Source: an uncultured delta proteobacterium
GTDB lineage: Bacteria > Desulfobacterota > Syntrophorhabdia > Syntrophorhabdales > WCHB1-27
Direction: 5' to 3'
Assembly: GCA_963810935.1 (NCBI GenBank)
Contig: CAWEPK010000005.1
Span: forward strand, 128,001-192,000
DNA length: 64,000 nucleotides
Position 1 is the stretch's first letter; every line of letters starts with the position of its first letter. The notes beneath the pieces are model-generated. The model searched no databases and was not told where the DNA came from. It worked only from the letters and a program-made list of their open reading frames with translations. The position numbers and the translations under genes are program-made. Below are positions 45,607-64,000 of this stretch, one piece after another.

Positions 45607-45964
45607 ACCGAAAATACCTCCTGTGCAAATATCGAAGAGTCAAACGATGCCAATAAAAAACCGCAACGTTTCACGCATTGCGGCACGTAACAATACGTCC
45701 GAAACTTCGGGTAACATGATTACATAGAATCGCGGAAAGAGTCAAAACAATTTTGTATCATACTTTACACTTTGCTTCCCCGTTCCGGGCTACCCCTGAT
45801 GTGCCCTTTAAATACGGCATGAGCCGGACCGCTCAATGCGGTTGACACAAAACCCCTGTTTTTGATATGGTTTAGAGTCGGCGGAATGGCTCGTTGCAGC
45901 TTGAATGCGTTTATGCAAGGCCGCAATTATGCGCCCGGGCAAGGGCGACTGCCGCATCGCGGGG

Positions 45965-46882
45965 ATGATGGATACGATAGAACTCGACAAGGTAAACGTT
46001 ACTGACAGCAGGTTCTGCGTCTCTTACCCCCTGGCCGACGACCTCCTGCTGGCTTCGATAAAAAGGTTCGGCATCCTCACGCCCGTTGCCTTGCAGGGGG
46101 GCGAGAGACGGGCCGTAATCACGGGTCACAAGAGATGCGATGCAGCGCGCGTGCTCGGGATCGCACACGTCCCATGTGTCTTCTTCAACGTCGACGACAG
46201 GCAGGCCCTCCTGATGTCGATAAACGACAACATGGCAAGGCCCCTCAACACCGTTGAAAGGGCCGTCTGCGTTGCGAAGATGGCAGCCTGCGGTTTTCCC
46301 ACGGAAGAAGTCTACGCTGTTATGACCATGCTCGGGCTGCCTGCAAGGGCGAATGTTTTGAAGACGTGCATCGGGGCCGCCTCGGCCGAAGAGCAGGTGT
46401 CGGCGTTTATCGTGGGCCACGGCCTCCCGGTCGCGGTAGTCGAGCAGCTTTTCGCGTTCGAGACAGGGGAGATGCGTGAAATCATCCGGCTGGTCGAACC
46501 GCTTCATCCGACCGTAAGCTCTTTGAGAGAGGCCCTCCAGCTCATGATGCTCGCCAGGGTGAAGCTGGGAGGCATAGATTTCGCGGGGTTCGAAGAGGTC
46601 AGGGACATGGAGGCCTTAAGACGCGCACTCAAAAAACGGACCAACCCGCTCCTTTCCGGGCTCGAAGAACGGCTGGCGGCTATACTCACCGCTTGCGCAC
46701 TGCCCCCTTCTATAAAGGTGCGGGTGGACCCGGCGTTCGAGAGGGAAACGGTCGATATAACGATACGGGCGCGCAGTAGCGGCGAGATAGAAGCGGCCGC
46801 ATCGAAGCTGGGCGGCATCGCCAGGGAAGGACTTTTCAGGAGCATATTTGAGCTTACCCACGGTACGTCGAATAGAATCTAA
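45965..46882 (+). CDS. ParB/Srx N-terminal domain protein
   Basis: 'LLASIKRFGILTPV', 'ITGHKR', 'DNMARPLNTVE'. Confidence 0.72.
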   Translation: MMDTIELDKVNVTDSRFCVSYPLADDLLLASIKRFGILTPVALQGGERRAVITGHKRCDAARVLGIAHVPCVFFNVDDRQALLMSINDNMARPLNTVERAVCVAKMAACGFPTEEVYAVMTMLGLPARANVLKTCIGAASAEEQVSAFIVGHGLPVAVVEQLFAFETGEMREIIRLVEPLHPTVSSLREALQLMMLARVKLGGIDFAGFEEVRDMEALRRALKKRTNPLLSGLEERLAAILTACALPPSIKVRVDPAFERETVDITIRARSSGEIEAAASKLGGIAREGLFRSIFELTHGTSNRI

Positions 46883-47795
46883 GGCCAGCGTCGTCAGGGA
46901 CTGTCCAGGTACGCGCAAGCACGTCTGCTGCGGCTACAAGACCATAGACCTCGTGGAGGGGTGCCCCCTGTCCTGCTCGTACTGCATCCTCAGGTCGTAC
47001 CTCAATAACCCCGGCATTACGGTACGAGGCGCCACGGACGCGATCATCGGCGAGATAGACGGGGCCGTCGCGGCCGAGAAAGCGCACGTCCTCAGGTTCG
47101 GCACGGGGGAATTGGGAGACAGCCTCGCCGTTGACAGGAAGCTCGACGCGGTCAGGCCTGTAGTCCGGTTCTTCGGCGAAAGGAAAGAGGCGCTTCTGGA
47201 GCTGAAGTCGAAATGGGCCGGCCTCGACCACCTGCGGTCGAGCCTCAACCCATACGTTGTCGTCTCCTTCTCGCTCGCCCCCCAGAGGATCGTCGATATG
47301 GAGGAGAAAGGGACGAGCCCTGTTGCGAAAAGGCTCAAGGCCCTGAAAAAAGCGCAGGATTGGGGATGCCTCGTGGGACTTCACTTCGACCCGGTGATCG
47401 TTTACGACGGCTTCGAGGACGATTACGCGCGCCTGATAGATGAGATAGCGGATACGCTCGATCTGAGCAGGGTCATATGGGCCAGCATGGGGTGCCTGCG
47501 CTTCGTGCCACGGCTCATGAAGCTTTTTCTCGATGAGAGGCGTGAAAACCTCCTGCACGGCGAATTTATCATGGGCGAGGACGGTAAGTACCGCTATATC
47601 AAGATGGAGAGGATCAGGGTCTACAAGATGCTTTACGGGCTCCTCAAGGCAAAGTCGCCCGGCCTTTTCATCTACCTTTGCATGGAGAGGCCCGAGGTGT
47701 GGCGGGAGGCGACCGGCGCGGAGGTCGGCCGAAGCGATGACCTGATAACGCTTTTCGACAGAAGAATAAGCGAATTCTACGGAGGCTTGCAATGA
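46848..47795 (+). CDS. Spore photoproduct lyase-like radical SAM protein
   Basis: 'CPGT...CCGY', 'GCPLSCSYCIL', 'GTGELGDSL', 'HFDP', 'DGKYRY', 'YLCME'; TTG start with AGGAG SD. Confidence 0.82.
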   Translation: MSLPTVRRIESKASVVRDCPGTRKHVCCGYKTIDLVEGCPLSCSYCILRSYLNNPGITVRGATDAIIGEIDGAVAAEKAHVLRFGTGELGDSLAVDRKLDAVRPVVRFFGERKEALLELKSKWAGLDHLRSSLNPYVVVSFSLAPQRIVDMEEKGTSPVAKRLKALKKAQDWGCLVGLHFDPVIVYDGFEDDYARLIDEIADTLDLSRVIWASMGCLRFVPRLMKLFLDERRENLLHGEFIMGEDGKYRYIKMERIRVYKMLYGLLKAKSPGLFIYLCMERPEVWREATGAEVGRSDDLITLFDRRISEFYGGLQ

Positions 47796-51194: not shown

Positions 51195-51306
51195 TAAAGC
51201 AAGCGAATGCGCAGCGCCGAGTGGGGAGGCCGGGGCACCCGCCCGACGTAAGGAGGGAAGGGTCGCAGCTTTGCCGACGGAGGGGGTGCTGAACCCCAAT
51301 GATTGC
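51194..51306 (+). repeat. Dispersed structured repeat, copy 3 (longer centre)
   Basis: Same flanks as copies 1 and 2 with about 30 extra central nt; begins at the rfbD stop codon. Confidence 0.8.
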
Positions 51307-51348
51307 CTGGTACGTTGAAAGGAGAAAGCTTATGGGCGAGGTAGATTC

Positions 51349-52117
51349 ATGAAAGTCGTCATTCTGGCAGGCGGACTGGGCACCCGCTTGAGCGAGGAAA
51401 CGGTAATCAAGCCGAAGCCCATGGTCGAGATAGGCAGCAGGCCCATCCTGTGGCATATCATGAAGATATACGGGCGCCATCACTTCGACGACTTCGTTGT
51501 CTGCCTCGGCTACAAGGGTTACATCATAAAAGAATTTTTCGCGAACTACGTCATCCACCAGTCGGACATCACGATCGACCTCCGCGCCAACAGACTCGCT
51601 TCTGCGCAGTAACAACACCGAGCCGTGGAGGGTAACGCTCGTAGGTACCGGAGAGAAAACGATGACTGGCGGCCGTGTACTGCGGGTCAGGGATTACCTG
51701 GAAAACGAGACGTTCATGCTTACATACGGAGACGGGGTAGCCGACATCGATATCGGGAAGCTTCTCGCGTTCCACAAGAGCCACGGCAAGCTCGCAACGG
51801 TGACCGCAGTCCGCCCGCCTTCCAGGTTTGGCGGCATGTCGATCGAAGACGGCCTCGTTACCAATTTCATCGAGAAACCCCAGATAGGAGAGGGCTGGAT
51901 CAACGGTGGGTTCTTTGTGCTGGAGCCCGGCGTGCTCGATTATATAAAGGGCGATTCCACGCTGTTCGAGCACGAGCCTTTGGAGATGCTGGCACGGGAG
52001 GGACAACTGGCCGCCTACAAGCACGAAGGCTTTTGGCAGTGCATGGACACAGTGCGCGACGTAGCGCTCCTCAACGAGCTGTGGGAATCGGAGCACTGTC
52101 CCTGGAAGGTCTGGTAG
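51349..52117 (+). CDS. rfbF: Glucose-1-phosphate cytidylyltransferase; apparent frameshift near 51598
   Basis: 'LAGGLGTRLSEET..KPKPMVEIG'; continues in another frame as 'EPWRVTLV', 'TGGR', 'TYGDG', 'INGGFF', 'FWQCMDT'. Confidence 0.9.
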
Positions 52118-52118
52118 G

Positions 52119-53238
52119 ATGGAACGGGCGCGCGATATCCTTCGCAGGGCTTACCGGGGCAAAAGAGTCCTCGTTACGGGCCACACGGGTTTCAAGGGGT
52201 CCTGGCTGGCTACCTGGCTCCTGGAATTGGGCGCCGAGGTGACGGGGTACGCCCTCGCGTCCACTACGGAACGGGACAATTTTGTCGTCTCCGGTCTCGC
52301 CGACCGCCTTACCGATGTCCGGGGCGACGTGAGGGACTTCGAAGGCCTGAAGGCCGTCTTTGACGACTTCAAGCCGGAGTTCGTCTTCCACCTCGCTGCC
52401 CAGGCCCTCGTAAGGAGGGGATACCGGGACCCCAAGGAGACCTTCGATACAAACGTCGGGGGCACTGTCAACGTGCTCGAGAATTGCCGCCTCAGCAATT
52501 CGGTCTCGACAATAGTCAACGTGACGAGCGACAAATGCTACGAGAACAGGGAATGGTCCTGGGGATACCGCGAGTGCGACCCCATGGGCGGCTACGACCC
52601 TTACAGCTCCAGCAAGGGGTGCTCGGAGCTTATAAGCGCCGCTTACAGGACGTCCTTTTTCAACAGCGATGGGGCATCGCGGAAGGTCCTCGCGACCGTC
52701 CGGGCCGGGAACGTGATAGGCGGCGGGGACTGGTCCGAAGACAGGATCATACCCGACTGCATCAGGTCGCTCGAAGCGGGCAAGGCAATAGGCGTAAGAA
52801 ACCCCCGCGCAGTGAGGCCGTGGCAGTTCGTGCTGGAGCCTCTCGGCGGCTACCTGCTCCTCGGCGCTGTGATGGGCACGGACCCGGACAGGTACGGCGG
52901 TCCATGGAATTTCGGCCCGGACAGGCTCTTCAACGGTCACCGTGGGCGAGCTTACAGGCCTGGTCGTAGACGCATGGGGCTCCGGGAGCTGGGAATCGAC
53001 AGCGACCGGTCGCGAGACGCACGAGGCGGGCCTGCTCGCCCTGGATATAAGCAAGGCGCGATACACGCTAGGCTGGCGGCCGAGTCTCACTATCGCCGAT
53101 GCGGTCGCAATGACGGTCGAGTGGTATGCCGCCTGCGTGAAGGGTGCAGGCGCGGCGCCTATATGCGAAAGCCAGATAAGAACTTACATGGAGCGAATGT
53201 CCATTCATGACACGGGAAGAAGAACAGATCAGGGGTGA
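52119..53238 (+). CDS. rfbG: CDP-glucose 4,6-dehydratase; apparent frameshift near 52925
   Basis: '[11 protein letters not shown]', 'TSDKCY', 'DPYSSSK', '[11 protein letters not shown]'; the C-terminus '[13 protein letters not shown]' is in the +1 frame. Confidence 0.9.
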
Positions 53239-54525
53239 GATTTCCGGTCTCGTCGAGAAGCTCTACCGGATGAAATACGGCCGCAGCGATTTCGTCCCGG
53301 GAAAGACGCCCGTCCGCTACGCCGGGCGCGTCTTCGACGAGCGGGAAATGAAGAACCTCGTCGATGCGTCGCTCGATTTCTGGCTTACAGCCGGCCGGTA
53401 CGCCGAGGAATTCGAGTCAAGGTTCGCAGAATTTTTCGGCCTTTCAGACGCGATCCTCGTGAACAGCGGCTCGTCCGCCAACCTCGTCGCAGTGAGTGCC
53501 CTCACCTCGTCCAAGCTGGGCGACAGGAGGCTCAAACCGGGAGACGAGGTAATCACCGCAGCAGCGGGCTTCCCCACGACGGTTGCCCCTATCGTCCAGA
53601 ACAGGCTTATCCCCGTCTTCGTCGATGTCCGGATAGGAACCTACAACGTCCTTCCCGACGAGGTCGCAGCGGCAGTCGGCCCGAGGACCCGCGCCATCTT
53701 TCTGGCCCATACCATGGGCAACCCCTTCGACCTGGAAGCGGTCTGCGAAATCGCCCGCAGCCATGACCTCTGGCTGATAGAGGACAACTGCGACGCCCTG
53801 GGGAGCCGCTACGACGGGAAGCTGACGGGCACCTTCGGACAGATAGCGAGCACGTCCTTTTACCCGGCCCATCACATCACCATGGGCGAAGGGGGATGCG
53901 TCGTGACCGATTCGGAAGAGATAGCGCGGGTAGCGCGCTCCTTCAGGGACTGGGGAAGGGACTGCTACTGCAGCGGAGGAGAGAACAACACGTGCGGCAA
54001 GAGGTACACGCAGAAGTTCGGCGACCTTCCCTTCGGCTACGACCACAAATACGTGTACTCCCATATAGGATACAACCTCAAGGTCACGGACATGCAGGCG
54101 GCAATCGGGGTCGCCCAGCTCGACAAGCTGGAAGGCTTCATAGAAAAAAGGAAGGCCCACTTCGAGCCTGATCATGCAGGGGTTGAAGCCCTTCGAAGAC
54201 CGTCTTTACCTGCCCGAGGCGACGCTTCTGGCGGACCCTTCATGGTTCGGCTTCGTCATAACCGTCAGGGAGGGTAGCGGCTTTACGCGGAACGAGCTCG
54301 ACGTCGTACCTGGAGCAGAACGGCATAGAGACGCGCAACCTCTTTTCGGGCAACCTGACGCGCCAACCCGCCTATATGGAAATAGAAAAGCGGCAGGTAG
54401 GAGACTTGAGCAATACCGACTACGTCATGGAGAACACGTTCTTCATCGGCGTTTACCCGGGCCTTGACCGGGAGCAGATCGACTATATGATAGACCGCAT
54501 AGGCCGGTTCATCGGGAGCCGCTGA
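53207..54525 (+). CDS. rfbH: CDP-4-keto-6-deoxyglucose 3-dehydratase (E1, DdhC/RfbH); apparent frameshifts near 54167 and 54300
   Basis: 'NSGSSAN', 'EDNCDA', '[14 protein letters not shown]' (His in place of the PLP Lys), 'DWGRDCYC', 'YDHKY'; C-terminal 'PSWFGF' and 'FIGVYPG' lie in shifted frames. Confidence 0.9.
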
Positions 54526-55248
54526 TTGCCGACACCTGTTAAGATACCGGTAGTCGCCCAAACGGTCGTGCGCCACACGGACACGGTCAAGACCCTGCTT
54601 TTGAAGCCCCTCAAGAGGCTACCGGCCTTCAGGCCGGGACAGTTCCTCCACCTGGCCATTGACCCTTACGACCCGGCAGGCTTCTGGCCCGAATCGCGTG
54701 TTTTTTCAATCGCCAGCTCGCCCGGCCGAGACCTCGTGCGCGTCGTCTTCTCCGTGAAGGGCGCATTCACGTCGAGGATGTTCAACGAGATCGGGGAAGG
54801 CGATGCATTGACCGTCAAGCTGCCTTACGGCAGCTTCCTCTTCGAGGCGGACCGGCCCCTCGTTTTGATAGCCGGCGGGACCGGCATAACGCCTTTTATC
54901 TCCTTCCTCGAGCACTCTCTCGACAAGCCATCGCCTGCCCGGATCAGCCTCTACTACGGGATGAGGAGCAGAGCGGACTTCGTCTGTAGCGACGTCCTCC
55001 GGGAATGCACCCGCACCATGAGCGGTTTCCGGTGCACTTGCTGCTTCGAGGACGGCGGTTTGGTCGAAGGTGTGAGCAGGTGCGAGAAGGGCATAATCCC
55101 AATAGATGAGATTATCGCCGAAAACCGGACGCAAAAGGAATCCCTCTATTATCTCTCGGGTCCGCCGGAAATGATAAAAAACGCCAGATCCCGCATCGCC
55201 GCAGCCGGCATAGATGAAAGCAACATCAGGGTGGACGATTGGGAATAG
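54526..55248 (+). CDS. FNR-type FAD/NAD(P) oxidoreductase (candidate E3 reductase, no ferredoxin domain)
   Basis: 'FRPGQF', 'RVFSIASSP', 'AGGTGITPF', 'YLSGPPEM'; starts immediately after rfbH. Confidence 0.78.
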   Translation: MPTPVKIPVVAQTVVRHTDTVKTLLLKPLKRLPAFRPGQFLHLAIDPYDPAGFWPESRVFSIASSPGRDLVRVVFSVKGAFTSRMFNEIGEGDALTVKLPYGSFLFEADRPLVLIAGGTGITPFISFLEHSLDKPSPARISLYYGMRSRADFVCSDVLRECTRTMSGFRCTCCFEDGGLVEGVSRCEKGIIPIDEIIAENRTQKESLYYLSGPPEMIKNARSRIAAAGIDESNIRVDDWE

Positions 55249-56322
55249 AGACTTCCAGCCGCCCGTCTGCGCCTGACGCTAACCCATTGGTCTCCGACCT
55301 GGACCACGTCCTCGCATCGACGCGCGGGTTGTGGGAGCAACTCCGGGGGAAATCGATATTCGTCACCGGCGGGACGGGTTTTATCGGGAAATGGCTCCTC
55401 GAAAGCTTTGTCCGGGCTTCCGACGTGCTCGATTTGCAGGCGCGGATGACGGTCCTTACCAGAGACATAGGGACTTTCACGGACGAGCACCCTCGTCTTG
55501 CCCGCCACCCGGCAATCCGGTACATCGAGGGTGACGTAAGAGACTTCACCTGGCCCAAAGAAACTTACTACGCGGTCATCCACGGGGCCGCCCAGGCAAG
55601 CGCCGAGCTGAACCGGGAGTACCCGCTGCTCATGACCCGCACGATCACGGAGGGGACACATAACGTCCTGGAAATGGCAAAAGACAGGGGCGTGCGCCGC
55701 TTCCTTTTCATCAGCTCCGGCGCCGTCTACGGCGAGCAACCGGCCGATATGGCCCATACACCGGAACAATATCGCGGCGCACCCGACTCTCTCGATCCCG
55801 GCTCTGCCTATGCCGAGTCCAAGAGAATGGGCGAGGCTGCTTTGTTCCATCTATTGCGCCCGCTGCGGCATCGAGACGATTGCCGCCCGGTGTTTCGCGT
55901 TCGTCGGTCCCTACCTCGACCTGGATATACACTTTGCCATAGGGAACTTCATCCGGGACGGCCTCAATGGCGGTCCCATTATAGTAAACGGGGATGGAAC
56001 ACCGCTTCGCTCCTATCTTTACACGTCAGACCTTGCGATATGGCTATGGGTCCTTCTCTTGTCGGGGAAGGCAGGCCAGGCATATAATGTCGGGTCGGAA
56101 GAGGCTGTTTCCATCGCGGAGCTTGCGGCTTGCGTTGCCGCCTGCTTCGAGCGACGGACGGAGGTTGTTATCAGAGGGCGTAAGGAACCGGACAAGCCCG
56201 TCGAGCAGTATGTACCCGATACAACGAAGGCGCGTACCGAGCTCGGCTTGAGTCAGCATATCGATCTGACGAGCGCTGTGAAAAAGACCATCGAGTGGCA
56301 CAGGGCCGTTTCATGGAGATAG
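55239..56322 (+). CDS. NAD-dependent epimerase/dehydratase/reductase; apparent frameshift near 55836
   Basis: 'TGGTGFIG', 'SSGAVYG', 'YAESKR'; continues as 'ARCFAFVGP', 'GDGTPLRSYLY', 'YNVGS'. Confidence 0.85.
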
Positions 56323-56347
56323 GGAAGCCAGGCAAAAGGCAAGATAG

Positions 56348-58165
56348 ATGAAACTGACGGACTACGTGATCGATCGCCTTGCCGCCCGGTATGGGGTGCG
56401 CGATATCTTTATGATCTCCGGCGGAGGGGCAATGCACCTTGTCGACTCTGTCGGCAAAGAAACCCGGCTCCGCTATCTCTGCCCCCATCACGAGCAGGCT
56501 GCGGCCATCATGGCGGAAGGCTATTCCCGCGTAACCGGCCGTCTCGCCGTATCAGTCGTAACCAGCGGTCCCGGCGGCACGAATACCCTTACCGGAGTAA
56601 TCGGCCAATGGCTCGACTCGGTGCCGGTCCTCTATCTTTCCGGACAGGTTAAACAGGAGACAACGATAGAATCGTGCCGCGATCTCGGTCTCAGACAGCT
56701 CGGCGACCAGGAGATAAACATCGTTGATATCGTTAGGCCCGTGACGAAGTACGCGGCGATAGTCAAGGACCCGCAAGATATCCGTTATCAACTCGACAAG
56801 GCGGTCTACATCGCTACCCACGGTCGGCCCGGCCCGGTATGGCTCGACATCCCGCTTGACGTGCAGGCGGCGTCGGTCGATCCGGAGAGCCTATCAGCTT
56901 ACGACAGCCGGGAAGACGAGATGCCATTCGACAGGGCCGCGCTTGCAAGCCAGGTAGAGCGCGTTGCCGCTTTGCTGCAAAAGGCGGAACGTCCTCTTCT
57001 TGTTGCCGGACAGGGCATCAGGATAAGCAAGGGCATCGACTTGTTCAGGCGCGTGGTGGACAAGATAGGCATCCCGGTAATCACCTCGTTCTGCGGGTAC
57101 GACCTTATGCCGTCCGATCACCCCCTGTTTGTCGGAAGACCGGGAACGCTGGGAACGAGGTTCGGTAACTTCGCCCTGCAGAATGCAGACTTGCTCATAA
57201 CGGTCGGCTCCAGAAATAATATCCGCCAGGTGAGTTACACACGGGGGGATTTTGCCAAGAACGCCGTAAAGGTCATGGTTGACATAGACGAAGCAGAACT
57301 TAAGAAACCAAGCTTTCATCCGGACATCGCTATTTGCGCAGACGCAAGTGAGTTCCTGAGGCTGCTTGGCGAAGCCGTAGAAACGAGACCGCTCCCCCGC
57401 TGGGATTCATGGATCGACTGGTGCAAAGAGCGCAAGAGTCGCTACCCCGTCGTGCTTGCGGAGTACTGGGATGACAAGAAACTGGTAAATCCGTACTGTT
57501 TCACCCAGGCGTTAACGGAGTCGCTCGGCGAAGGCGCGACTGTTGTGGCAGGTAACGGCACCGCCTGCGTCGCCCTCTTTCAGGCAGGTATAGTGAAGGA
57601 CGGACAGCGTTCTTTCTGGAACTCGGGATGCGCCTCGATGGGCTATGACCTGCCCGCGGCCATAGGCGCATGCGTCGCGGCCGGAAAAACCGTTGTCTGC
57701 CTGGCCGGTGACGGCAGCCTGCAAATGAACATACAGGAGCTGCAGACCGTCTACCATAACAGGCTACCCATAAAGCTCTTCGTACTGAACAACGGCGGCT
57801 ATGTGTCGATCAGACAGACCCAGGACAGTTTTTTCGGAGGCAGGCACGTCGCGTGCGGACCCGACAGCGGGGTCACCTTCCCCGACATCTGTCGCGTCGC
57901 CCTGGCCTATGGGATACCTTCATCCGTCATCTCAGGTCATGAAGGCATGAAGGATAAGATAAGGGAGACCCTGTCAACGCCCGGCCCCAACGTATGCGAA
58001 GTCCTTCTTTCCCCGGAGCAGAACTTCAGCCCCCGCGTCTCATCGAAAAAGGAACCGGACGGGAGGATCGTATCGAAACCCCTCGAGGATTTGTACCCCT
58101 TCCTGCCGAGAGAAGAACTCGAGAGGAACATGCTCGTGCGGCATAAAAAAGGCGACAAGGAGTAA
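56348..58165 (+). CDS. ThDP-dependent acetolactate-synthase-like enzyme (YerE-like carboligase)
   Basis: 'HHEQAA', 'TSGPGGTN', 'GRPGPVWLDIP', 'SMGY', 'GDGS...NN'; located inside a dideoxysugar operon. Confidence 0.85.
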   Translation: MKLTDYVIDRLAARYGVRDIFMISGGGAMHLVDSVGKETRLRYLCPHHEQAAAIMAEGYSRVTGRLAVSVVTSGPGGTNTLTGVIGQWLDSVPVLYLSGQVKQETTIESCRDLGLRQLGDQEINIVDIVRPVTKYAAIVKDPQDIRYQLDKAVYIATHGRPGPVWLDIPLDVQAASVDPESLSAYDSREDEMPFDRAALASQVERVAALLQKAERPLLVAGQGIRISKGIDLFRRVVDKIGIPVITSFCGYDLMPSDHPLFVGRPGTLGTRFGNFALQNADLLITVGSRNNIRQVSYTRGDFAKNAVKVMVDIDEAELKKPSFHPDIAICADASEFLRLLGEAVETRPLPRWDSWIDWCKERKSRYPVVLAEYWDDKKLVNPYCFTQALTESLGEGATVVAGNGTACVALFQAGIVKDGQRSFWNSGCASMGYDLPAAIGACVAAGKTVVCLAGDGSLQMNIQELQTVYHNRLPIKLFVLNNGGYVSIRQTQDSFFGGRHVACGPDSGVTFPDICRVALAYGIPSSVISGHEGMKDKIRETLSTPGPNVCEVLLSPEQNFSPRVSSKKEPDGRIVSKPLEDLYPFLPREELERNMLVRHKKGDKE

Positions 58166-58171
58166 AACGAC

Positions 58172-58972
58172 ATGAACTCCGTTGAACAGAGAATGGTAGA
58201 GATACTGAAGGAGCTTCGGGAAAGCTACGGCGCGCTCGCCGTGCGGGCCGAGTTTGAGGCCGAAGGGACGCGCCTTGAGGAGCTCCTGCGCCTCAAGGAG
58301 ATATGCATGACCGCCGGCCTCGGTCTGACCCTGAAGATAGGGGGGTGCGAATCGATCAGGGACATGCTGGAGGCGAAGATCGTGGGGGTCGATTACCTCG
58401 TTGCCCCTATGGTCGAGTCGCCGTACGCGCTGCGGAAATACCTTCAGGCGGTAAGCAAGACATTCTTTTCCGAAGAGGCAAACCCGGTAGAGGTGCTTTG
58501 CAATATCGAAACGGTAACCGGGTGCAACAACTTCGAGGCGATGCTCGGCATACCCGAGCTTGGAGGCCTTAACGGGATAGTTATAGAACGGGTCGACCTC
58601 TGTTTCTCCCTGGGGCTCGACGAGCAAGCCATCAACAAGAGCGAAGTAAATGAGATCGTTCTCGAAACCATCACCAAGGCCAAAAAGAAGAACCTGACCT
58701 GTACGGTGGGCGGAGGGGTATCGGCGGAGTCGTTGCCCTTTTTCGAAAAGATGCCGGAGGGCTATCTCGACCGGTACGAGACCCGCAAGGTCTGTTTCTC
58801 CTGGCAGGGCACACCAAACAGCAGGGACAAGGCCATATTGAAGGCGCTGGGGTTTGAAGTGCTCTGGCTTCGCAACAAGTTCAACTACTTCGACGGCATC
58901 TCTCGTTCCGAAAGGCAGCGGATGAGCCTCATCGAGCAGAGATACTGGAACGCGATAGATGCGCTACTGTAA
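58172..58972 (+). CDS. HpcH/HpaI aldolase/citrate-lyase family protein, paralogue 1
   Basis: 'AEFEAEG', 'KIGGCE', 'APMVES', 'NIET', 'ERVDL'. Confidence 0.7.
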   Translation: MNSVEQRMVEILKELRESYGALAVRAEFEAEGTRLEELLRLKEICMTAGLGLTLKIGGCESIRDMLEAKIVGVDYLVAPMVESPYALRKYLQAVSKTFFSEEANPVEVLCNIETVTGCNNFEAMLGIPELGGLNGIVIERVDLCFSLGLDEQAINKSEVNEIVLETITKAKKKNLTCTVGGGVSAESLPFFEKMPEGYLDRYETRKVCFSWQGTPNSRDKAILKALGFEVLWLRNKFNYFDGISRSERQRMSLIEQRYWNAIDALL

Positions 58973-58987
58973 GAAGAAGGGGGTACG

Positions 58988-59806
58988 ATGAACCGGACAG
59001 AGAAACAAATGACGGAACATCTTCGGAAGATAAAGGACAAATATGCGGTAGTAGGCGTCAAGGCTGAGTTCGAGGCCGAGGGGACCAGGACGGAAGAGCT
59101 TATGAGACTCAAGGAGATATGCCTCTCCGCCGGTGCGTCCCTCACTCTCAAGATAGGGGGTTGCGAGGCCGTCCGGGACATGTACGACGCCCGCACGGTA
59201 GGGGTCGATTACCTCGTCGCACCCATGGTCGAGACACCGTTTTCGCTGCAAAAATATTTGAAGGCAATCGATATAGTCTTTCCGAAAGACGAGCAGGAGA
59301 AGATCGAATTTCTCATCAACGTGGAAACGATTATGGCCGCCGGGAACTTCAAAGAGATGATGACAGTGAACGGCATAGAAAAATTGGGGGGCATAGTCGT
59401 CGGCCGCGTGGACCTCGTGGGCTCTATGGGGCTCGACCGGAGCGCATGCGAGAGCGAAGAGATTTTCGCCATAGCGAAGGACCTGCTCGTAGAAACGAAA
59501 AAACAAAAGATGACCTACGTGCTGGGAGGCGCGATATCGGCCGACTCCCTCTCTTTTTTACGGCGGCTGTCCGGCGAGGCGATGATCGACAGGTACGAGA
59601 CAAGAAAGATCTGCTTCTCGTGCCCGGACGCCTTAAAGGACGGGGCCGAGCAAGGGATAGCGGAGGCCGTGGCGTTCGAGCTTTTGTGGCTGCAAAACAA
59701 GCGAAGCTTTTACAAGGCCATCGCTGAGGAAGACGATAAGAGGATCACGATGCTCGAGGCGCGCCACCGTCAGGCGGAGACCGGACAGGGCGTTAAGGGG
59801 GCGTGA
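58988..59806 (+). CDS. HpcH/HpaI aldolase/citrate-lyase family protein, paralogue 2
   Basis: 'AEFEAEG', 'KIGGCE', 'APMVET', 'NVET', 'GRVDL'. Confidence 0.7.
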   Translation: MNRTEKQMTEHLRKIKDKYAVVGVKAEFEAEGTRTEELMRLKEICLSAGASLTLKIGGCEAVRDMYDARTVGVDYLVAPMVETPFSLQKYLKAIDIVFPKDEQEKIEFLINVETIMAAGNFKEMMTVNGIEKLGGIVVGRVDLVGSMGLDRSACESEEIFAIAKDLLVETKKQKMTYVLGGAISADSLSFLRRLSGEAMIDRYETRKICFSCPDALKDGAEQGIAEAVAFELLWLQNKRSFYKAIAEEDDKRITMLEARHRQAETGQGVKGA

Positions 59807-60480
59807 TGGAAGCGGGCAGGCTTTCCGCGCTGGTCACGGGCGGCTCGGCGGGGATCGGTCTTGCCGTCGCCAAACGGCTGAAGGCGGAAGGCATCGACGT
59901 CATTACGCCTACCAGGCGCGATATGGACCTTTTGTCGGACGCATCGATAGACGCATACCTTAAGTCCCTCTCCCGGCCGGTCGATATCCTCATCAATAAT
60001 GCAGGCGTCAACATCATTGCGCCTCTTGCCGATATCACCGACGACTATATGCGGGAAACGATCCAGATTAATCTTCTCGCGCCTTTTCGCCTGGCCCGTG
60101 CGCTTGCGCCCGGTATGGCCGAGCGGAGTTACGGCAGGATAGTAAATATCAGCTCGATCTGGGCATACGTCAGCAAACCCGGAAGGCTCACGTATGCCAC
60201 GGCCAAATCCGGCCTGCAGGGAATGACGAGGACGCTGGCCGTGGAGCTCGCGCCTTACAACGTCCTAGTGAATGCCATAGCGCCCGGCTTCGTGAATACC
60301 GAAATGACGCGCCGGAACAATACCAGGGAGCAAATAGAGGCCATCGAGAAGAACATCCCCGCGGGCAGACTTGCGGAGCCTGAAGAGATCGCCGAGGCAA
60401 CCGCATTCCTCGCGTCAGAAAAGAATTCCTATATCACGGGCCAGACGATACTGGTAGACGGCGGGTTTACATGTCTCTGA
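59803..60480 (+). CDS. SDR family oxidoreductase
   Basis: 'TGGSAGIG', 'NNAG', 'YATAK', 'APG'. Confidence 0.88.
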   Translation: MMEAGRLSALVTGGSAGIGLAVAKRLKAEGIDVITPTRRDMDLLSDASIDAYLKSLSRPVDILINNAGVNIIAPLADITDDYMRETIQINLLAPFRLARALAPGMAERSYGRIVNISSIWAYVSKPGRLTYATAKSGLQGMTRTLAVELAPYNVLVNAIAPGFVNTEMTRRNNTREQIEAIEKNIPAGRLAEPEEIAEATAFLASEKNSYITGQTILVDGGFTCL

Positions 60481-61544
60481 TCACCGTCAAATCGAATATC
60501 CGGGACTACACGGTGAGCTTCCAGGAATCGTTCGCCTTCCTGGACGACCTCAAAAAAAAGCAGGAGAGGTGCTACGTAATCGACGAAAATGTGTGGCGTC
60601 TTTATTCGGCCGGGCCGCTCAAAGACCTCGCCGGCTCGGACGTTGTCGTGCTCCCCATACAGGAGGAGCTGAAATCCCTGGAGAGCGTCGAAAAACTTTA
60701 TGACTACCTCGTCCGGCGGACCGCCAAGCGCAACCTGACGCTTATCTCCATCGGAGGCGGCATCCTTCAGGACATATCCGGGTTCGTCGCGTCTACCCTC
60801 TACCGGGGAATTGACTGGGTCTTCATCCCCACCACCCTGCTCGCCCAGGCAGATAGCTGCATCGGCGCGAAGACCTCCCTGAACTATAAGTCCTTCAAAA
60901 ACCTGATAGGCACCTTCTATCCGCCGTCCGAGGTCATCGTTCATACCCCTTTTTTGCTCACGCAGGAGGACGTCGACTTTTACAGCGGGCTGGGCGAGGT
61001 CATAAAGCTGCATATGATCGGGGGCATGCAGTCGCTTCGTAAGATCGCCGGGGCAATGCCTGCGATAGAGCGTAAGGAGGCCGACGCGCTGAAGACATGC
61101 GTCTATGACTCCCTCGTCATTAAGCGCGGCTACATCATGGACGACGAATTCGACACCGGCAGGCGGAACATGCTCAATTTCGGCCATTGCTTCGGACACG
61201 CCATCGAGTTCGCGGCAGGCTACGAGATCCCGCACGGGCAGGCGATCGTGCTCGGCATGATGCTTGCCGAGATCGTCGCGAAAGAGCGCGGATTGCTTTC
61301 CCGGGAATTCTGCGGATTTCTTTCCGCGAAGCTTTTGTTGCCTGCACTAAAAGTAAAGGTCAGAACGGAACATCTCGACCCGGCAAGAATCGTCGAAGCC
61401 ATGCAGAAAGACAAGAAGCGGGTCGGCAAGGGGCTTGCTCTTGTCATGATGGGCGACAACTGTGAGATGTTCAAGGTGAACGATCTCACTGCGCGGGAAG
61501 CCTCTGACGCGCTCGATGCCGTATCGGTCGACCTGGCCCTCTGA
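60471..61544 (+). CDS. AroB-related sugar-phosphate cyclase (3-dehydroquinate synthase family)
   Basis: 'GGGILQD', 'YRG', 'PTTLLAQADSCIGAK', 'KNLIG', 'EVIK', 'LNFGHCFGHAIE', 'PHGQA', 'DKK'. Confidence 0.85.
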   Translation: MSLITVKSNIRDYTVSFQESFAFLDDLKKKQERCYVIDENVWRLYSAGPLKDLAGSDVVVLPIQEELKSLESVEKLYDYLVRRTAKRNLTLISIGGGILQDISGFVASTLYRGIDWVFIPTTLLAQADSCIGAKTSLNYKSFKNLIGTFYPPSEVIVHTPFLLTQEDVDFYSGLGEVIKLHMIGGMQSLRKIAGAMPAIERKEADALKTCVYDSLVIKRGYIMDDEFDTGRRNMLNFGHCFGHAIEFAAGYEIPHGQAIVLGMMLAEIVAKERGLLSREFCGFLSAKLLLPALKVKVRTEHLDPARIVEAMQKDKKRVGKGLALVMMGDNCEMFKVNDLTAREASDALDAVSVDLAL

Positions 61545-61644
61545 CGCCCGTCTTTCCCACCGCCCCGCAGCCTGCTTTTAGCGTCCACCCGTCATAGCGG
61601 CACAGTTCCCGGCGCCGACCTCCCCCCTCCGGCAGGAGACCATT

Positions 61645-62614
61645 ATGAGAAAACTGATAAGCATAATCGCGTCGGCATTCAATGAGGAAGGCAACATAGA
61701 AGAGCCTGTCCCGGCAACTCAAGGCCGTTTTCGACGAGAACGAGAGGTACGACTTCGAGGTGATCCTGGTCGAGAACGGATCGAGCGACCGCACTTTCGA
61801 AAAGATGCTAAAGCTCAACGAAGAGGACGGACGGTTCAAGATCGTGCAATTGTCGAGGAACTTCAGGATGGACGGCGGCATAACGGCCGGATTGAGCCAT
61901 GCCTCGGGCGACGCGGCCGTCATCATGACGGCAAACCTCCAGGACAAACCGGAAGTTATTACCGGTTTCATCAGGAAATGGGAAGAGGGTTATGAAAACG
62001 TCTACGGGATAGTTAGGAAAAGGACGGGCAAAGGGTTGCTGAGGCGATTCAACTCATTCTTGTTCTACAAGATAATAAACTCCATGACGAGCGGCCTGAT
62101 CCCCGAGAACGTGAGCGATTTCAGGCTTATGGACCGAAAGGTGTACGAAGCGATCAATTTCATGAAGGAGCGTAATCGCTTTCTTCGCGGCATGGTGGCC
62201 TGGACCGGGTTTAAGTCCGTCGGAGTGGAATACGAGCGGGCCAGGAGGTTTTCGGGCAAGTCTCACGCCCATTCGCTTCACGTCCTGCAGCTCGCAATCA
62301 ACAGCATATTCGCCTTTTCATACTTTCCCATCCGCTCAATCTCGTTTTTAGGCATAGCGTTGTCGGGGGTATCCCTTCTTTACCTCCTCTATACCGTAGT
62401 CAGGATATTCGAGAAGGGCGTTCCTTTCGCCGGTTACGGCACCATCGTCTCCCTCATAGTCCTGATGTTCGGGATCCTCTTTTTTATCCTCGGAATATTG
62501 GGCCAGTATATCGCGCAGATATACGAGGAAGTGAAGCAAAGGCCGAGCTATATCGTTAGCGCGAAGGTGGGGTTTGCAGATACGGCTGCCGCAGCGTCGA
62601 GGGACGGCAAATAA
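61645..62614 (+). CDS. GT2 glycosyltransferase, GtrB/DPM1-like with two C-terminal TMs; apparent frameshift near 61706
   Basis: 'AFNEEGNI', then shifted 'VENGSSDRT', 'LSRNF', 'NLQD', 'DFRLMDR', 'ERNRFLRG', 'IYEEVKQRP'. Confidence 0.87.
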
Positions 62615-62650
62615 TATAAATGGCGAAATCGCTGCCGTAACAAGAGAGTC

Positions 62651-64000
62651 ATGCTTCAATCAATCTACTATCTTCTTTTTATATACCTCTACCTTTCTTT
62701 CCTCGGGGCGGGCCTCTATCTGCTTCTCGCTCCGTCCTGGCTTAGGAAGCCGTACTATCTGCCCTTCGCAGTCCCGGTCCTCGGCTCGTCGCTCCTCTCC
62801 GTGCTGGGAATGTACGTCATCTGCCTGCGGCTGCACATCGGGGCGCTGATTCCTGTCTCCCTGACAGCGGCAGGTGTCCTGCTTCTATCGGGTCTATTGG
62901 CTCACCGGCGGGAAATCAGTCGAACCTGGTCCGAATTGAGGAATATACGACCGAGAATAAAGCATTTGCTGGTGGCCGTGCCTGCGATTATATGCGTGAT
63001 GCTGGCGGTCCTCTGGCCCGCTGTCAGGGAAGGGGCGCCGACCGTGCCTTTCCGGATCGGTCCCGATCAGATGTGCAATGTGATCGAGGCCCAATTCTTC
63101 CTGTCGGGCGGAACGATGAACAGCCCGACCGAGATAAACCGTTTCAGAAAAGACGATTGGATTCCAAGGTTGGCCATAGAGGGCATGCGGTGGAGTTTTC
63201 CGGCCGCTCTTGCGACTTATAACCGTCTTCTCGGAAGCCCTCACACGTACCGGGTCGGGTATCCCGCGATCGCTTTGCACCTGATATTCTTAGGCGGCCT
63301 GGCGTACTGCCTTCTTTATTACCGCTTCGGTCTGTCGCCGCCGGCCTCGTTGCTCGGCGGGGCCGCCGTTACCCTCAACTGCAACATGCTCAATGCGATC
63401 TGCGAAGGGTTCTGGGCGCAGGTCTTCACTATGCCGATGTTCGTCATCATGCTCCTCGCGTTGCTCGATCTACGGGACACTGAGAAAGTGCAGTCCCGGC
63501 CTGATATTTGGAAGTCGGTCGTTCTCCTCTCCCTTCTCGCCTTGCCTCTCATCACCGCATGGAGCGAAGGAACTCAGATCGTGCTTTATTTCTGGGTGAT
63601 CACGCTGGCGCTCGACCTTGCGCTCAAGAGGAAGATATCGAAGACTAACCTGATCGTACCGGTGGCAGCGCTCGTCACATTACTGCTCGCCGCCCCGGTC
63701 CTCCCGATGCTCAAGCAGCATTATATCAATGTAGCCAACCACTTTCTGCTGAATAGCGGGTTCCCGCAGCCGCATTGGGCTTTCCCATCGGAGATACTTG
63801 GCTTATCCGATATGTATCACAATTTCATGCGGTGGTTCGGGCGCTATTTTGTCCCCAAGACCGTACGCATGACGGGAGGTAGTCTTATTTTCAACACGAT
63901 TGCCTCCATAGTCATAATAGCCGCGTTCGCGCGACATACGCTCACCTCCCGATCCCTCGACAAGCCGTTTTGGCTGGCTGCGCCCGTCTTCGTCACTCTA
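62651..64000 (+). CDS. Polytopic membrane protein, GT-C-like; runs off the window's right edge
   Basis: Manual translation from ATG 62651 (MLQSIYYLLF...) is open to the window end; many TM helices and a loop containing 'RIGPD'. Confidence 0.6.
   Translation, partial: MLQSIYYLLFIYLYLSFLGAGLYLLLAPSWLRKPYYLPFAVPVLGSSLLSVLGMYVICLRLHIGALIPVSLTAAGVLLLSGLLAHRREISRTWSELRNIRPRIKHLLVAVPAIICVMLAVLWPAVREGAPTVPFRIGPDQMCNVIEAQFFLSGGTMNSPTEINRFRKDDWIPRLAIEGMRWSFPAALATYNRLLGSPHTYRVGYPAIALHLIFLGGLAYCLLYYRFGLSPPASLLGGAAVTLNCNMLNAICEGFWAQVFTMPMFVIMLLALLDLRDTEKVQSRPDIWKSVVLLSLLALPLITAWSEGTQIVLYFWVITLALDLALKRKISKTNLIVPVAALVTLLLAAPVLPMLKQHYINVANHFLLNSGFPQPHWAFPSEILGLSDMYHNFMRWFGRYFVPKTVRMTGGSLIFNTIASIVIIAAFARHTLTSRSLDKPFWLAAPVFVTL

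Follow-up and report, generated by a model that had tools for sequence, protein, structure and literature searches.

An AroB paralogue in a candidate operon for a long-branched 3,6-dideoxyhexose

The operon described here raises the question of why a paralogue of dehydroquinate synthase (DHQS, AroB) should lie among genes for a surface sugar. It lies in a window of 64,000 nucleotides (the whole stretch of DNA that was analysed) from an uncultured delta proteobacterium (assembly GCA_963810935.1, contig CAWEPK010000005.1). We consider it probable, although well short of certain, that the product of the operon is a CDP-3,6-dideoxyhexose whose C4 bears an open-chain branch of six carbons ending in a methyl group, either caryophyllose or one of its stereoisomers, and that the AroB paralogue, together with an adjacent short-chain dehydrogenase (SDR), takes the terminal phosphate off the precursor of this branch without closing a ring. 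If this is true, a textbook ring-forming family has been put to deoxygenation.

Gene content of the operon

Profile searches recovered all twelve genes named in the preliminary description, in the named order and on the plus strand (Table 1). They are co-directional and closely spaced, at -32 to +100 bp; rfbH and the FNR-like gene abut, the rfbH stop codon being at 54523-54525. In the assembly, rfbF, rfbG, rfbH (twice), the extended SDR gene and the GT2 gene are frameshifted, each time by one extra base. Relatives lack the six extra bases (rfbF is whole, at 255 amino acids, in loci L025 and L099), and contigs from four short-read runs of one study omit them in two to four of the four runs, depending on the site; these two observations rule out a pseudogene reading. 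The six frameshifts are assembly errors, and the genes are real.

Table 1. Genes of the operon and extra bases in the assembly (positions in the window)
Feature	Position	Strand	Basis or remark
rfbF, glucose-1-phosphate cytidylyltransferase	51349..52117	+	TIGR02623 on both halves
rfbG, CDP-glucose 4,6-dehydratase	52119..53238	+	TIGR02622, 395 bits > 278
rfbH (E1), C3 dehydrase	53207..54525	+	PRK15407, 546 bits > 423
FNR-like reductase	54526..55248	+	PF00175 only
Extended SDR	55239..56322	+	PF01370
YerE-like ThDP carboligase, GDG motif	56348..58165	+	Pfam TPP domains PF02775/00205/02776
Aldolase-like copy 1, divergent paralogue	58172..58972	+	PF03328
Aldolase-like copy 2	58988..59806	+	PF03328
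Classical SDR	59803..60480	+	stop overlaps AroB-like start
AroB-like paralogue, predicted phospho-lyase	60471..61544	+	TIGR04425, 400.0 bits
GtrB/PgfS/ArnC-like GT2	61645..62614	+	PF00535; best matches NF047588 and PRK10714, under cut-offs
Multi-pass membrane protein, 670 aa, 5' part	62651..64000 (runs to 64663)	+	no family match
rfbF extra base	51594		omitted in 3/4 short-read runs
rfbG extra base	near 52924 (52924-6)		omitted in 4/4 short-read runs
rfbH extra bases	near 54166 (54166-7) and 54299
Extended SDR extra base	55835
GT2 extra base	61705

RfbF, RfbG and RfbH together with an E3-type reductase produce CDP-4-keto-3,6-dideoxyglucose, and the rfbF/rfbG/rfbH set for this intermediate is present. 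A motif check of the FNR-like protein found no CxxxxCxxC ferredoxin motif, and the protein lacks a 2Fe-2S domain; judging from its sequence, it likely stands in for E3, and its gene is optional (near 13 of 57 AroB-like loci). The closest PDB entry to the ThDP enzyme is 8rph (E 1.9e-125), followed by 5ahk, which we take to be JanthE and PpYerE, respectively; AHAS ranks behind. Extended SDR genes occur close to 46 of the 57 AroB-like loci and to 5 of 7 loci that have only a HAD phosphatase; by analogy, the one in the window likely encodes a YerF-type reductase of the branch C1' ketone.

Relation to the caryophyllose locus of Mycobacterium marinum

The LOS locus of M. marinum contains MMAR_2327 (GT87), 2328 (sugar kinase), 2329 (AroB_2), 2330 (short-chain dehydrogenase), 2331 (aldolase/citrate lyase), 2332 (ThDP), 2333 (GT2), 2334 (rfbF), 2335 (rfbH) and 2336 (CDP-glucose dehydratase) (PMC12395582 supplement). 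Mutants in MMAR_2331-2333 lose caryophyllose, 3,6-dideoxy-4-C-[D-altro-1,3,4,5-tetrahydroxyhexyl]-D-xylo-hexopyranose, the branch of which is acyclic and methyl-ended. Our locus shares with it an AroB paralogue, a short-chain dehydrogenase, an aldolase/citrate-lyase protein, a ThDP enzyme, GT2, rfbF, rfbH, rfbG and GT87, and the transcriptional order ThDP-aldolase-SDR-AroB is common to both. The window has both an AroB_2/SDR pair of the MMAR_2329/2330 type and a YerE-like ThDP gene adjoining an MMAR_2331-type aldolase and a reductase. Three mycobacterial loci retrieved with the window's aldolase profile have the M. marinum order and genes homologous to those of the window; the tie of the window's aldolase to MMAR_2331 is indirect, via L183-L185 and an aldolase cluster containing Mycobacterium ulcerans proteins.

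There are also differences. The window stands apart by its second aldolase, its FNR-like gene and its adjacent extended SDR; the FGGY kinase of the mycobacterial loci is absent from it (and seen in 3 of 57 loci); and, as far as the genes show, its acceptor is not a trehalose glycolipid. Identities to the M. marinum locus are only 33-59%. Against mycobacterial copies, aldolase copy 2 is 46-47% identical, the GT2 53-54% (to the GT2 adjoining ThDP) and the ThDP enzyme 35% (to the copy in L184). The AroB-like protein is 35% identical to that of L184, on the same side of the tree with support of 100/100, and the L184 protein in turn shares 93% identity with a protein of M. marinum that clusters with AroB_2 of strain M. 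Because the window's AroB-like and ThDP proteins fall in another subclade than those of M. marinum, at 35% identity, chain length and stereochemistry may differ from caryophyllose.

A scheme of aldolase, ThDP enzyme and reductase is published for acyl-branched sugars (available text of PMC9306805), spanning yersiniose (YerE/YerF), erwiniose (ErwE/F/I/J), gastriose and a sugar of R. palustris (available parts of PMC9306805 and PMC12247030). Our locus has in common with it a 2-oxo acid produced by an aldolase, carboligation by a ThDP enzyme onto C4 of CDP-4-keto-3,6-dideoxyglucose, and reduction of the branch ketone, whereas the scheme, in its available text, includes neither a DHQS paralogue nor a phosphorylated donor. 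The word 'dehydroquinate' does not occur in the available text of PMC9306805, in its supplement text or in the review, although the cluster figures may show an AroB gene. Our literature search returned no paper tying caryophyllose to dehydroquinate, none on DHQS with O-antigen and ThDP/CDP-glucose or with HpcH/cytidylyltransferase, and no occurrence of 'AroB-related' among the papers listed (20 of 101). The literature searched, in the portions available, assigns no role to the AroB-like/SDR pair, and no mutant of MMAR_2329 or MMAR_2330 was found in it.

The preliminary description had proposed a candidate undescribed system that makes a larger or cyclic donor or branch. With the same parts in M. 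marinum and the aldolase-ThDP-reductase scheme in print, the pathway type is already known and the locus is no new system; since caryophyllose is acyclic and methyl-ended, a carbocycle is also unlikely. What survives of the proposal is a donor larger than pyruvate, most likely built by the aldolase, SDR and AroB-like genes, the presence of which beside the ThDP gene distinguishes the locus from one for yersiniose only (YerE/YerF).

The AroB paralogue and the predicted pathway

The AroB-like protein scores 400.0 bits, exactly the cut-off, on TIGR04425 (AroB-related putative sugar phosphate phospholyase; close homologues score 376-422), and 269.5 bits on the aroB model TIGR01357, under the cut-off of 305. 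The metal, NAD, phosphate and carboxylate residues are all kept: R112, D128, K134, N144, E176, K179, K218, R232, L235, N236, H239, H243, H255 and K315/316, the roles of which we take from the A. nidulans structure, are 98-100% conserved in 77 cassette copies. DHQS active-site residues are also kept in M. marinum AroB_2. In a tree that omitted the long branches L096 and L024, cassette AroB-like proteins separate from housekeeping AroB (46 versus 25 rows, support 100/100). The window protein further differs from housekeeping AroB in having a fixed SDR partner and a glycan-locus setting. In three long proteins (37-38% identity), none of which carries the SDR, an AroB-like domain is fused to an inositol monophosphatase (PF00459).

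Could the gene nevertheless encode a housekeeping DHQS, with plain yersiniose as the sugar? We regard this as very improbable. It is the sole AroB-family gene of its genome, in an assembly that is 93% complete and has aroD and aroE (contig C4, 2030-3654). To that extent, the circumstance named beforehand as refuting a sugar role, that the gene be the only aroB, literally holds. It does not refute that role, because DAHP synthase (aroF), aroA and aroC gave no match in this assembly, nor did the alternative DHQ synthase II or class II DAHP synthase. The missing aroF, aroA and aroC argue that the gene is not housekeeping, as do the separate clade and the three other genomes of the genus, none of which has aroC and two of which lack any AroB-family match. 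The separate housekeeping aroB that was expected is missing here and present, above cut-off, in 32 of 50 other cassette-bearing genomes. Judged by these comparisons, the AroB-like gene is not a housekeeping dehydroquinate synthase. Such genes are annotated as aroB in many genomes, which can give a lineage that lacks the shikimate pathway, apparently including this genus, the look of having it. The source genome is a clean case, with no DAHP synthase seen to feed the AroB-like protein from central metabolism, and the cassette would therefore make its own C7 phosphate.

Aldolase copy 2 is likely, from its sequence and model, the synthase of a 3-deoxy-ulosonate phosphate. The model (pLDDT 94.6) has class II pyruvate aldolases HpaI/HpcH as its closest folds; a PDB search by sequence gave no match. 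In copy 1, Glu replaces Gly139. Across loci, the residue here is E in the first member of 21/21 tandem pairs and G in the second member of 21/21, and G also in 96% of 91 single copies. The classical SDR has the tetrad N90/S118/Y131/K135, with R128 invariant in 67/67, and is probably an NADPH reductase of a C6 ketone. Its gene is immediately 5' of the AroB-like gene in 67 of 72 loci and is missing from 7/7 HAD-only loci. In the survey of the 57 AroB-like and 7 HAD-only loci, L167 was scored as lacking an SDR solely because its SDR sits just past the 3.5 kb limit. A complex prediction for the AroB-like protein and the SDR scored 0.00, which speaks neither for nor against pairing.

We propose the following route. 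RfbF, RfbG and RfbH, assigned by family, would with the FNR-like protein carry out the established reactions to CDP-4-keto-3,6-dideoxyglucose. From erythrose 4-phosphate and either pyruvate or PEP, the aldolase would make a 3-deoxy-hept-2-ulosonate 7-phosphate. The AroB paralogue would perform the early DHQS steps (oxidation of C5 by NAD+, beta-elimination of phosphate, re-reduction), and the enol would open and be protonated to 3,7-dideoxy-hepto-2,6-diulosonate. The classical SDR would reduce C6, the ThDP enzyme would decarboxylate the resulting 3,7-dideoxy-hept-2-ulosonate and add the C6 acyl unit at C4 of the keto-sugar, and the extended SDR, like YerF, would reduce C1'. The two reductases fit the two ketones, which we count in favor of the pathway. 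For the ThDP step in vitro, ErwE works with analogues and MMAR_2332 has been shown with aldehyde acceptors only. In true DHQS, the opening of the ring and the aldol closure require little assistance from the enzyme (PMC7144000). With the catalytic residues intact, the enol would therefore tend to cyclise, which counts against our model.

Exchange with a phosphatase across loci, and proposed transfer of the sugar

The aldolase-SDR-AroB-like-ThDP core with rfbFG(H) was found under 15 phylum labels, and the aldolase, SDR and AroB-like genes accompany the ThDP gene in 36 of the 43 loci of at least 15 kb; the co-conservation presupposed by the preliminary description was thus borne out. Plasmids gave no AroB-like match at 1e-40 and three aldolase records, and none of the phages and viral contigs searched had a match. 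Among 24 aldolase-anchored metagenome loci (those with 1.5 kb downstream), 13 have the SDR and AroB-like genes and 9 a HAD gene; of the other two, one has a HAD gene and a partial AroB-like match without SDR, and the second has a HAD gene from a different subfamily. The aldolase tree (59 rows, with L117 and L139 omitted for an unsupported HAD label, L173 as a long branch and L111 as a duplicate) forces at least six swaps between SDR+AroB-like and HAD, and the two kinds occur together in 2 of 64 wide loci (L069 and L121). The HAD locus L130 and the SDR+AroB-like locus L133 have aldolases 95% identical and ThDP enzymes 91% identical (over 347 aa), so the two kinds of product would fit almost the same ThDP enzyme.

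In the KdsA/KdsC and NeuB/HAD routes, a C3 unit is joined to an aldose phosphate and the terminal phosphate is then lost. NeuB and HAD genes occupy these slots in sister loci: NeuB takes the aldolase slot in three, and an HMGL-like/DmpG-like aldolase in one, which points to the aldolase as a forward synthase of an ulosonate phosphate. In our locus, unlike those routes, the phosphate would go by elimination, leaving a deoxy (methyl) end rather than CH2OH. If this is true, gene content predicts the branch end (HAD, CH2OH; SDR+AroB-like, CH3), a rule for long-branched sugars that spans at least 15 phyla. In L018, L020, L087 and L089, the SDR and AroB-like genes are paired with genes for HpaI and a CMP transferase resembling KdsB, with no ThDP gene; the KdsB-linked consumer, like the ThDP enzyme, needs a free C2 keto group. 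We give about an even chance to a broader proposal, in which TIGR04425 paralogues halt ahead of ring closure and form with the SDR a portable C7-deoxygenation module (ulosonate 7-phosphate to 3,7-dideoxy-heptulosonate). In M. marinum (MMAR_2329/2330), the module would supply the side chain of caryophyllose, replacing the published pyruvate plus deoxytetrose step and filling a gap in that route; in the KdsB-linked loci, it would also feed a so far undescribed dideoxy-ulosonic acid activated with CMP.

These loci also bear on whether a ring is formed at all. That the end product contains a carbocycle (a cyclitol branch or a caryose- or bradyrhizose-like sugar) is improbable: ring closure would consume the 2-oxo group required by the ThDP enzyme, near-identical ThDP enzymes operate with a plain phosphatase, the matching M. 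marinum locus yields an acyclic sugar, and a conserved enzyme activating a cyclitol acid was not seen. DHQS-family enzymes do normally cyclise, however, the TIGR04425 label says 'cyclizing', and Cys240, invariant in the window's AroB-like subclade, is Ser in M. marinum. An acyclic product could instead arise via a ring, if the AroB-like protein formed a dehydroquinate-type carbocycle that an aldolase copy or the AroB-like protein itself reopened by retro-aldol cleavage, with the SDR trapping the product. The intact active site and easy cyclisation (PMC7144000) are consistent with this, as are the second, altered aldolase and the nearness of the aldolase fold to lyases of tertiary alpha-hydroxy acids, a homologue at 35% residing in a citrate-type cluster. 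We think it unlikely. NeuB-fed loci without such an aldolase still keep SDR, AroB-like and ThDP genes, which lowers the case for the aldolase as a retro-aldolase of dehydroquinate; tandem aldolases occur in HAD loci without an AroB-like gene (L108, L113, L114 and L118); and the paralogue is retained in genomes that have a housekeeping aroB.

We likewise doubt that the published route applies unchanged, with the aldolase joining pyruvate and a 4-deoxytetrose, the SDR as the YerF-type C1' reductase, and the AroB-like protein in a side role or acting on another phosphate (for example, after the ThDP step). Steitz et al., in the text available, propose for both M. marinum and R. palustris that pyruvate is joined with aldehyde 28, but that text names no source of the deoxytetrose, and the HAD swap says that the intermediate is phosphorylated. 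Although another NAD-binding gene is not seen within 20 kb at L184 and an extended SDR was not detected in 11 of 57 loci, HAD loci lose the classical SDR along with the AroB-like gene (0/7) yet retain the extended SDR (5/7). In addition, the carboxylate-binding K134, K218 and R232 are kept, which fits a free ulosonate and not a CDP-sugar adduct.

Our preferred pathway would end with the GT2, GtrA and GT87 moving the sugar onto a glycan of the cell surface, with attachment on the outer face. The GT2, by its sequence, likely loads the sugar onto polyprenyl phosphate; a GT2 at 50% identity or more occurs close to just 13 of 57 loci. The membrane protein (62651 to 64663), which had been called GT-C-like, matches no Pfam or NCBIfam family; its Atlas look-alikes are mostly unnamed, some being DUF6541 (14-30% of members), and its fold model is unusable (pLDDT 41.5). 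It is possibly a GT-C, and the next gene (C5:192667) is a GT87. Around these the locus has several GT2 and membrane genes, GtrA (PF04138, C5:197500) and, 10.5 kb beyond the window end, a Wzx-like flippase gene (NF041503, 81 bits, far under the cut-off of 300). Export by a putative set of GtrB-like GT2, GtrA and GT87, as in the periplasmic decoration suggested earlier, is supported by the GtrA and GT87 genes just beyond the window and by MMAR_2333 and MMAR_2327 in M. marinum, but with several GT2, membrane and Wzx-like genes in the locus these three are only candidate partners.

Gene order and conservation of the cassette

All twelve contiguous genes named in the preliminary description were found on the + strand, running to the end of the window (see table). 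The window spans C5:128001-192000 of the source genome, G000. The AroB-like protein, a paralogue of dehydroquinate synthase (DHQS), scores 400.0 bits against TIGR04425 (cut-off 400) and 269.5 bits against the aroB family (cut-off 305). Six frameshifts, two in rfbH and one each in rfbF, rfbG, the extended SDR gene and the GT2 gene, are single extra bases. These bases are missing from relatives and from short-read contigs (four runs, one study), so the organism itself carries intact genes. The FNR-like protein has no ferredoxin domain, and the last gene, encoding a membrane protein, may be a GT-C.

The earlier statement that Wzx is not seen holds inside the window, but only because of where the window ends. 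Past that point the contig carries genes for a GT87, another GT2 and a flippase of the GtrA family, heptose genes and a Wzx-like gene. The GmhB-like/transaldolase fusion encoded there adjoins a SIS gene and HddA/HddC-like genes, and could be a further source of erythrose 4-phosphate. For the repeat upstream of rfbF, at least 56 genomic matches were counted, with 40 of the 91 candidates scored; its read depth is also raised, which suggests a REP- or MITE-like family.

Features of the window, its genome and the comparison loci
Feature	Location	Strand	Content
Operon	window 51349 to window end	+	rfbF, rfbG, rfbH, FNR-like, extended SDR, ThDP, two HpcH-family (aldolases), classical SDR, AroB-like, GT2, membrane protein
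Extended SDR	window 55239-56322	+
ThDP enzyme, YerE-like	window 56348-58165	+
Aldolase copy 1	window 58172-58972	+
Aldolase copy 2	window 58988-59806	+
AroB-like	window 60471-61544	+
Intergenic repeat	window 51200-51310		GC-rich, ~110 bp, between rmlD and rfbF
ParB-like gene	window 45905-47795		followed by spore-photoproduct-lyase-like radical SAM gene (by inspection)
Phosphatase/transaldolase fusion	G000 C5:201254-202501 (L209:11254-12501)		GmhB-like HAD phosphatase and transaldolase-family domain, one frame
aroD, aroE	G000 C4:2030-3654		mid-contig; gene upstream unrelated
KdsB-linked cassette	L018:7697-14731		HpaI, KdsB-like, Gfo oxidoreductase, SDR, TIGR04425 AroB-like, 2-hydroxyacid dehydrogenase, SIS
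Locus with two ThDP enzymes	L045:3553-8049		rfbFGH with NeuB-SDR-AroB-like
FGGY sugar kinase	L183:6259-7536		directly after AroB-like
Aldolase pair with radical SAM gene	L112:6416-8828		radical SAM gene and HAD in place of SDR and AroB-like
Solitary aldolase-family members	L171:9696-10493; L172:9710-10504; L098:12001-12774

The cassette recurs widely, with 15 phylum labels in the tree; two named homologues belong to Syntrophaceae and Syntrophorhabdales. A search with the AroB-like protein gave 72 loci. In 67 of them the classical SDR lies directly upstream of AroB-like (a contig end interrupts three of the other five); an aldolase is present in 58 and a ThDP gene in 63. Of the 43 loci that span 15 kb or more, 36 have aldolase, SDR and ThDP genes together, 36 have rfbF or rfbG and 30 have rfbH. 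Thus, the aldolase and cyclase-like genes are co-conserved with the ThDP and rfb genes. The locus with two ThDP enzymes perhaps makes two branched sugars. In three long fusion proteins (P0121-P0123), an inositol monophosphatase domain is joined to an AroB-like domain that shares 37-38% identity with the window protein.

Relation to the shikimate pathway

The AroB-like gene is not a housekeeping gene. In a careful tree, which omits the proteins of L096 and L024, 46 cassette-type and 25 housekeeping proteins split at 100/100. A separate housekeeping aroB was found above cut-off in 32 of 50 cassette-bearing genomes (covering 50 of the 72 loci) but not in the source genome, where the AroB-like gene is the only AroB-family match. 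The single DAHP_synth_1 match in that genome is KdsA by sequence and context, and the sole EPSP-family match resembles MurA. The genome has no match to class II DAHP synthase, DHQ synthase II or aroC, or to the ORFs after aroE in the operons of two relatives, which by inspection are aroA-, aroC-, pheA- and tyrA-like; it does have aroD and aroE. In 3 of 3 further members of the genus, whose genomes are 66-92% complete, aroC is missing, and two of them have no AroB-family match. Sister genera have the whole operon; this genus appears to be without aroF, aroB, aroA and aroC, with aroD-aroE kept in the source genome. Aromatic amino acid auxotrophy or use of quinate or shikimate is possible.

The caryophyllose locus of Mycobacterium marinum

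The pathway was put forward as an undescribed system leading to a branched or carbocyclic sugar. It is instead of the published caryophyllose/acyl-branched kind, and M. marinum has a locus with the same functions. In the available text of Steitz et al. (PMC9306805), erwiniose, caryophyllose and gastriose arise from an aldolase-made 2-oxo acid by ThDP carboligation and reduction; neither this text nor that available of a review (PMC12247030) mentions dehydroquinate synthase. Among the freely available paper texts searched, none joins caryophyllose with dehydroquinate, and related searches of the same scope on DHQS in such loci were likewise blank.

An aldolase profile search of 380 genomes of a PE-bearing genus gave four strong matches. 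Three full mycobacterial loci read rfbF-GT2-ThDP-aldolase-SDR-AroB-like-kinase, with rfbH-rfbG on the opposite strand. The functions, order and strands of MMAR_2327-2336 in the available part of a supplement (PMC12395582) match these loci, and MMAR_2329 is listed as "AroB 2". The AroB-like protein of one locus (L184) shares 93% identity with an M. marinum protein, and the cluster of that protein includes AroB_2 of strain M. The window protein is 35% identical to its M. marinum counterpart, and the two have in common the clade marks Q100, W116, C130 and S136 and all catalytic residues. Caryophyllose is missing in MMAR_2331-2333 mutants, whose glycolipid profile shows LOS-II*, and the sugar is acyclic, its branch ending in a methyl group (available part of PMC5706390). 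Thus, even though its DHQS active site is intact, this locus yields no ring, which argues against a carbocyclic product. However, the window enzymes are only ~35% like those of M. marinum, and the product may therefore be an isomer or homologue of caryophyllose. The kinase of the three mycobacterial loci (L183-L185), equivalent to MMAR_2328, is an FGGY sugar kinase absent from 54 of 57 AroB-like loci.

A proposed role for the SDR/AroB-like pair

Some loci carry a HAD phosphatase in place of the SDR/AroB-like pair. Of 54 aldolase-anchored metagenome loci, 24 extend 1.5 kb or more downstream. Of these, 13 have the pair and 9 a HAD-IIA phosphatase; one has a HAD and a partial AroB-like match without SDR, and one a HAD of another subfamily. 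In 64 wide loci, a sample biased because the majority were found through AroB-like, 54 have AroB-like and SDR only, 7 HAD only, 2 HAD and AroB-like, and one AroB-like with an SDR just past the distance limit. The aldolase tree contains eight changes between the two states, at least six forced by supported branches. Aldolases of a HAD locus (L130) and two pair loci (L133, L135) are 93-95% alike, and their ThDP enzymes 84-91%. Given these repeated swaps, also among loci whose aldolases and ThDP enzymes are near-alike, the intermediate acted on by the pair is likely a phosphate, and both products likely suit the same ThDP enzyme.

Either NeuB (L045, L075, L081) or, in L093, an HMGL-like aldolase can fill the aldolase slot, which indicates a forward synthase. 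In one locus (L035) the pair stands alone. Four loci (L018, L020, L087, L089) combine the pair with HpaI, a KdsB-like CMP transferase, Gfo, a 2-hydroxyacid dehydrogenase and mostly SIS, and have no ThDP gene; a fifth (L086) has its upstream part cut off. Their AroB-like proteins are above the TIGR04425 cut-off where tested, and the cassette is a candidate for making a CMP-activated dideoxy-ulosonic acid.

We propose, with about even confidence, that the AroB-like protein and the SDR form a portable, non-cyclising deoxygenation module. DHQS chemistry uses a seven-carbon chain with phosphate on C7. Both consumers, the ThDP enzyme and the CMP transferase, require the C2 keto group, and ring closure would consume it. 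A C7 donor minus CO2 would give a six-carbon branch, as in caryophyllose. On our reading of the name D-altro-1,3,4,5-tetrahydroxyhexyl, the donor would have to be D-ribo, the C4 epimer of DAHP, and this would explain why the locus has an aldolase and an AroB of its own. In the classical SDR, the tetrad, NADP-type basic residues and an invariant Arg are conserved. This enzyme is lost together with AroB-like, whereas the extended SDR is retained in HAD loci, which argues for two ketones and two reductases. According to the available part of an account of the DHQS reaction steps (PMC7144000), the last two need little enzyme help, so avoidance of cyclisation requires a cause. Cyclisation might be avoided by an epimeric substrate, enolate protonation or quick capture by the SDR. 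Cys240, invariant in the window subclade and Ser in M. marinum, is a candidate for enolate protonation in that subclade.

Aldolase copy 1 has Glu for the conserved Gly139 in all 21 tandem pairs, and tandem pairs also occur in loci with HAD. This copy may be a non-catalytic subunit, or may take another nucleophile. The radical SAM and HAD genes after the aldolase pair in L112 are a possible third way to tailor the branch. Solitary family members follow lpxK/kdtA-like genes in two genomes (L171, L172), and one in Ilyobacter (L098) lies beside aconitase, PrpF and 2-hydroxycarboxylate transporter genes.
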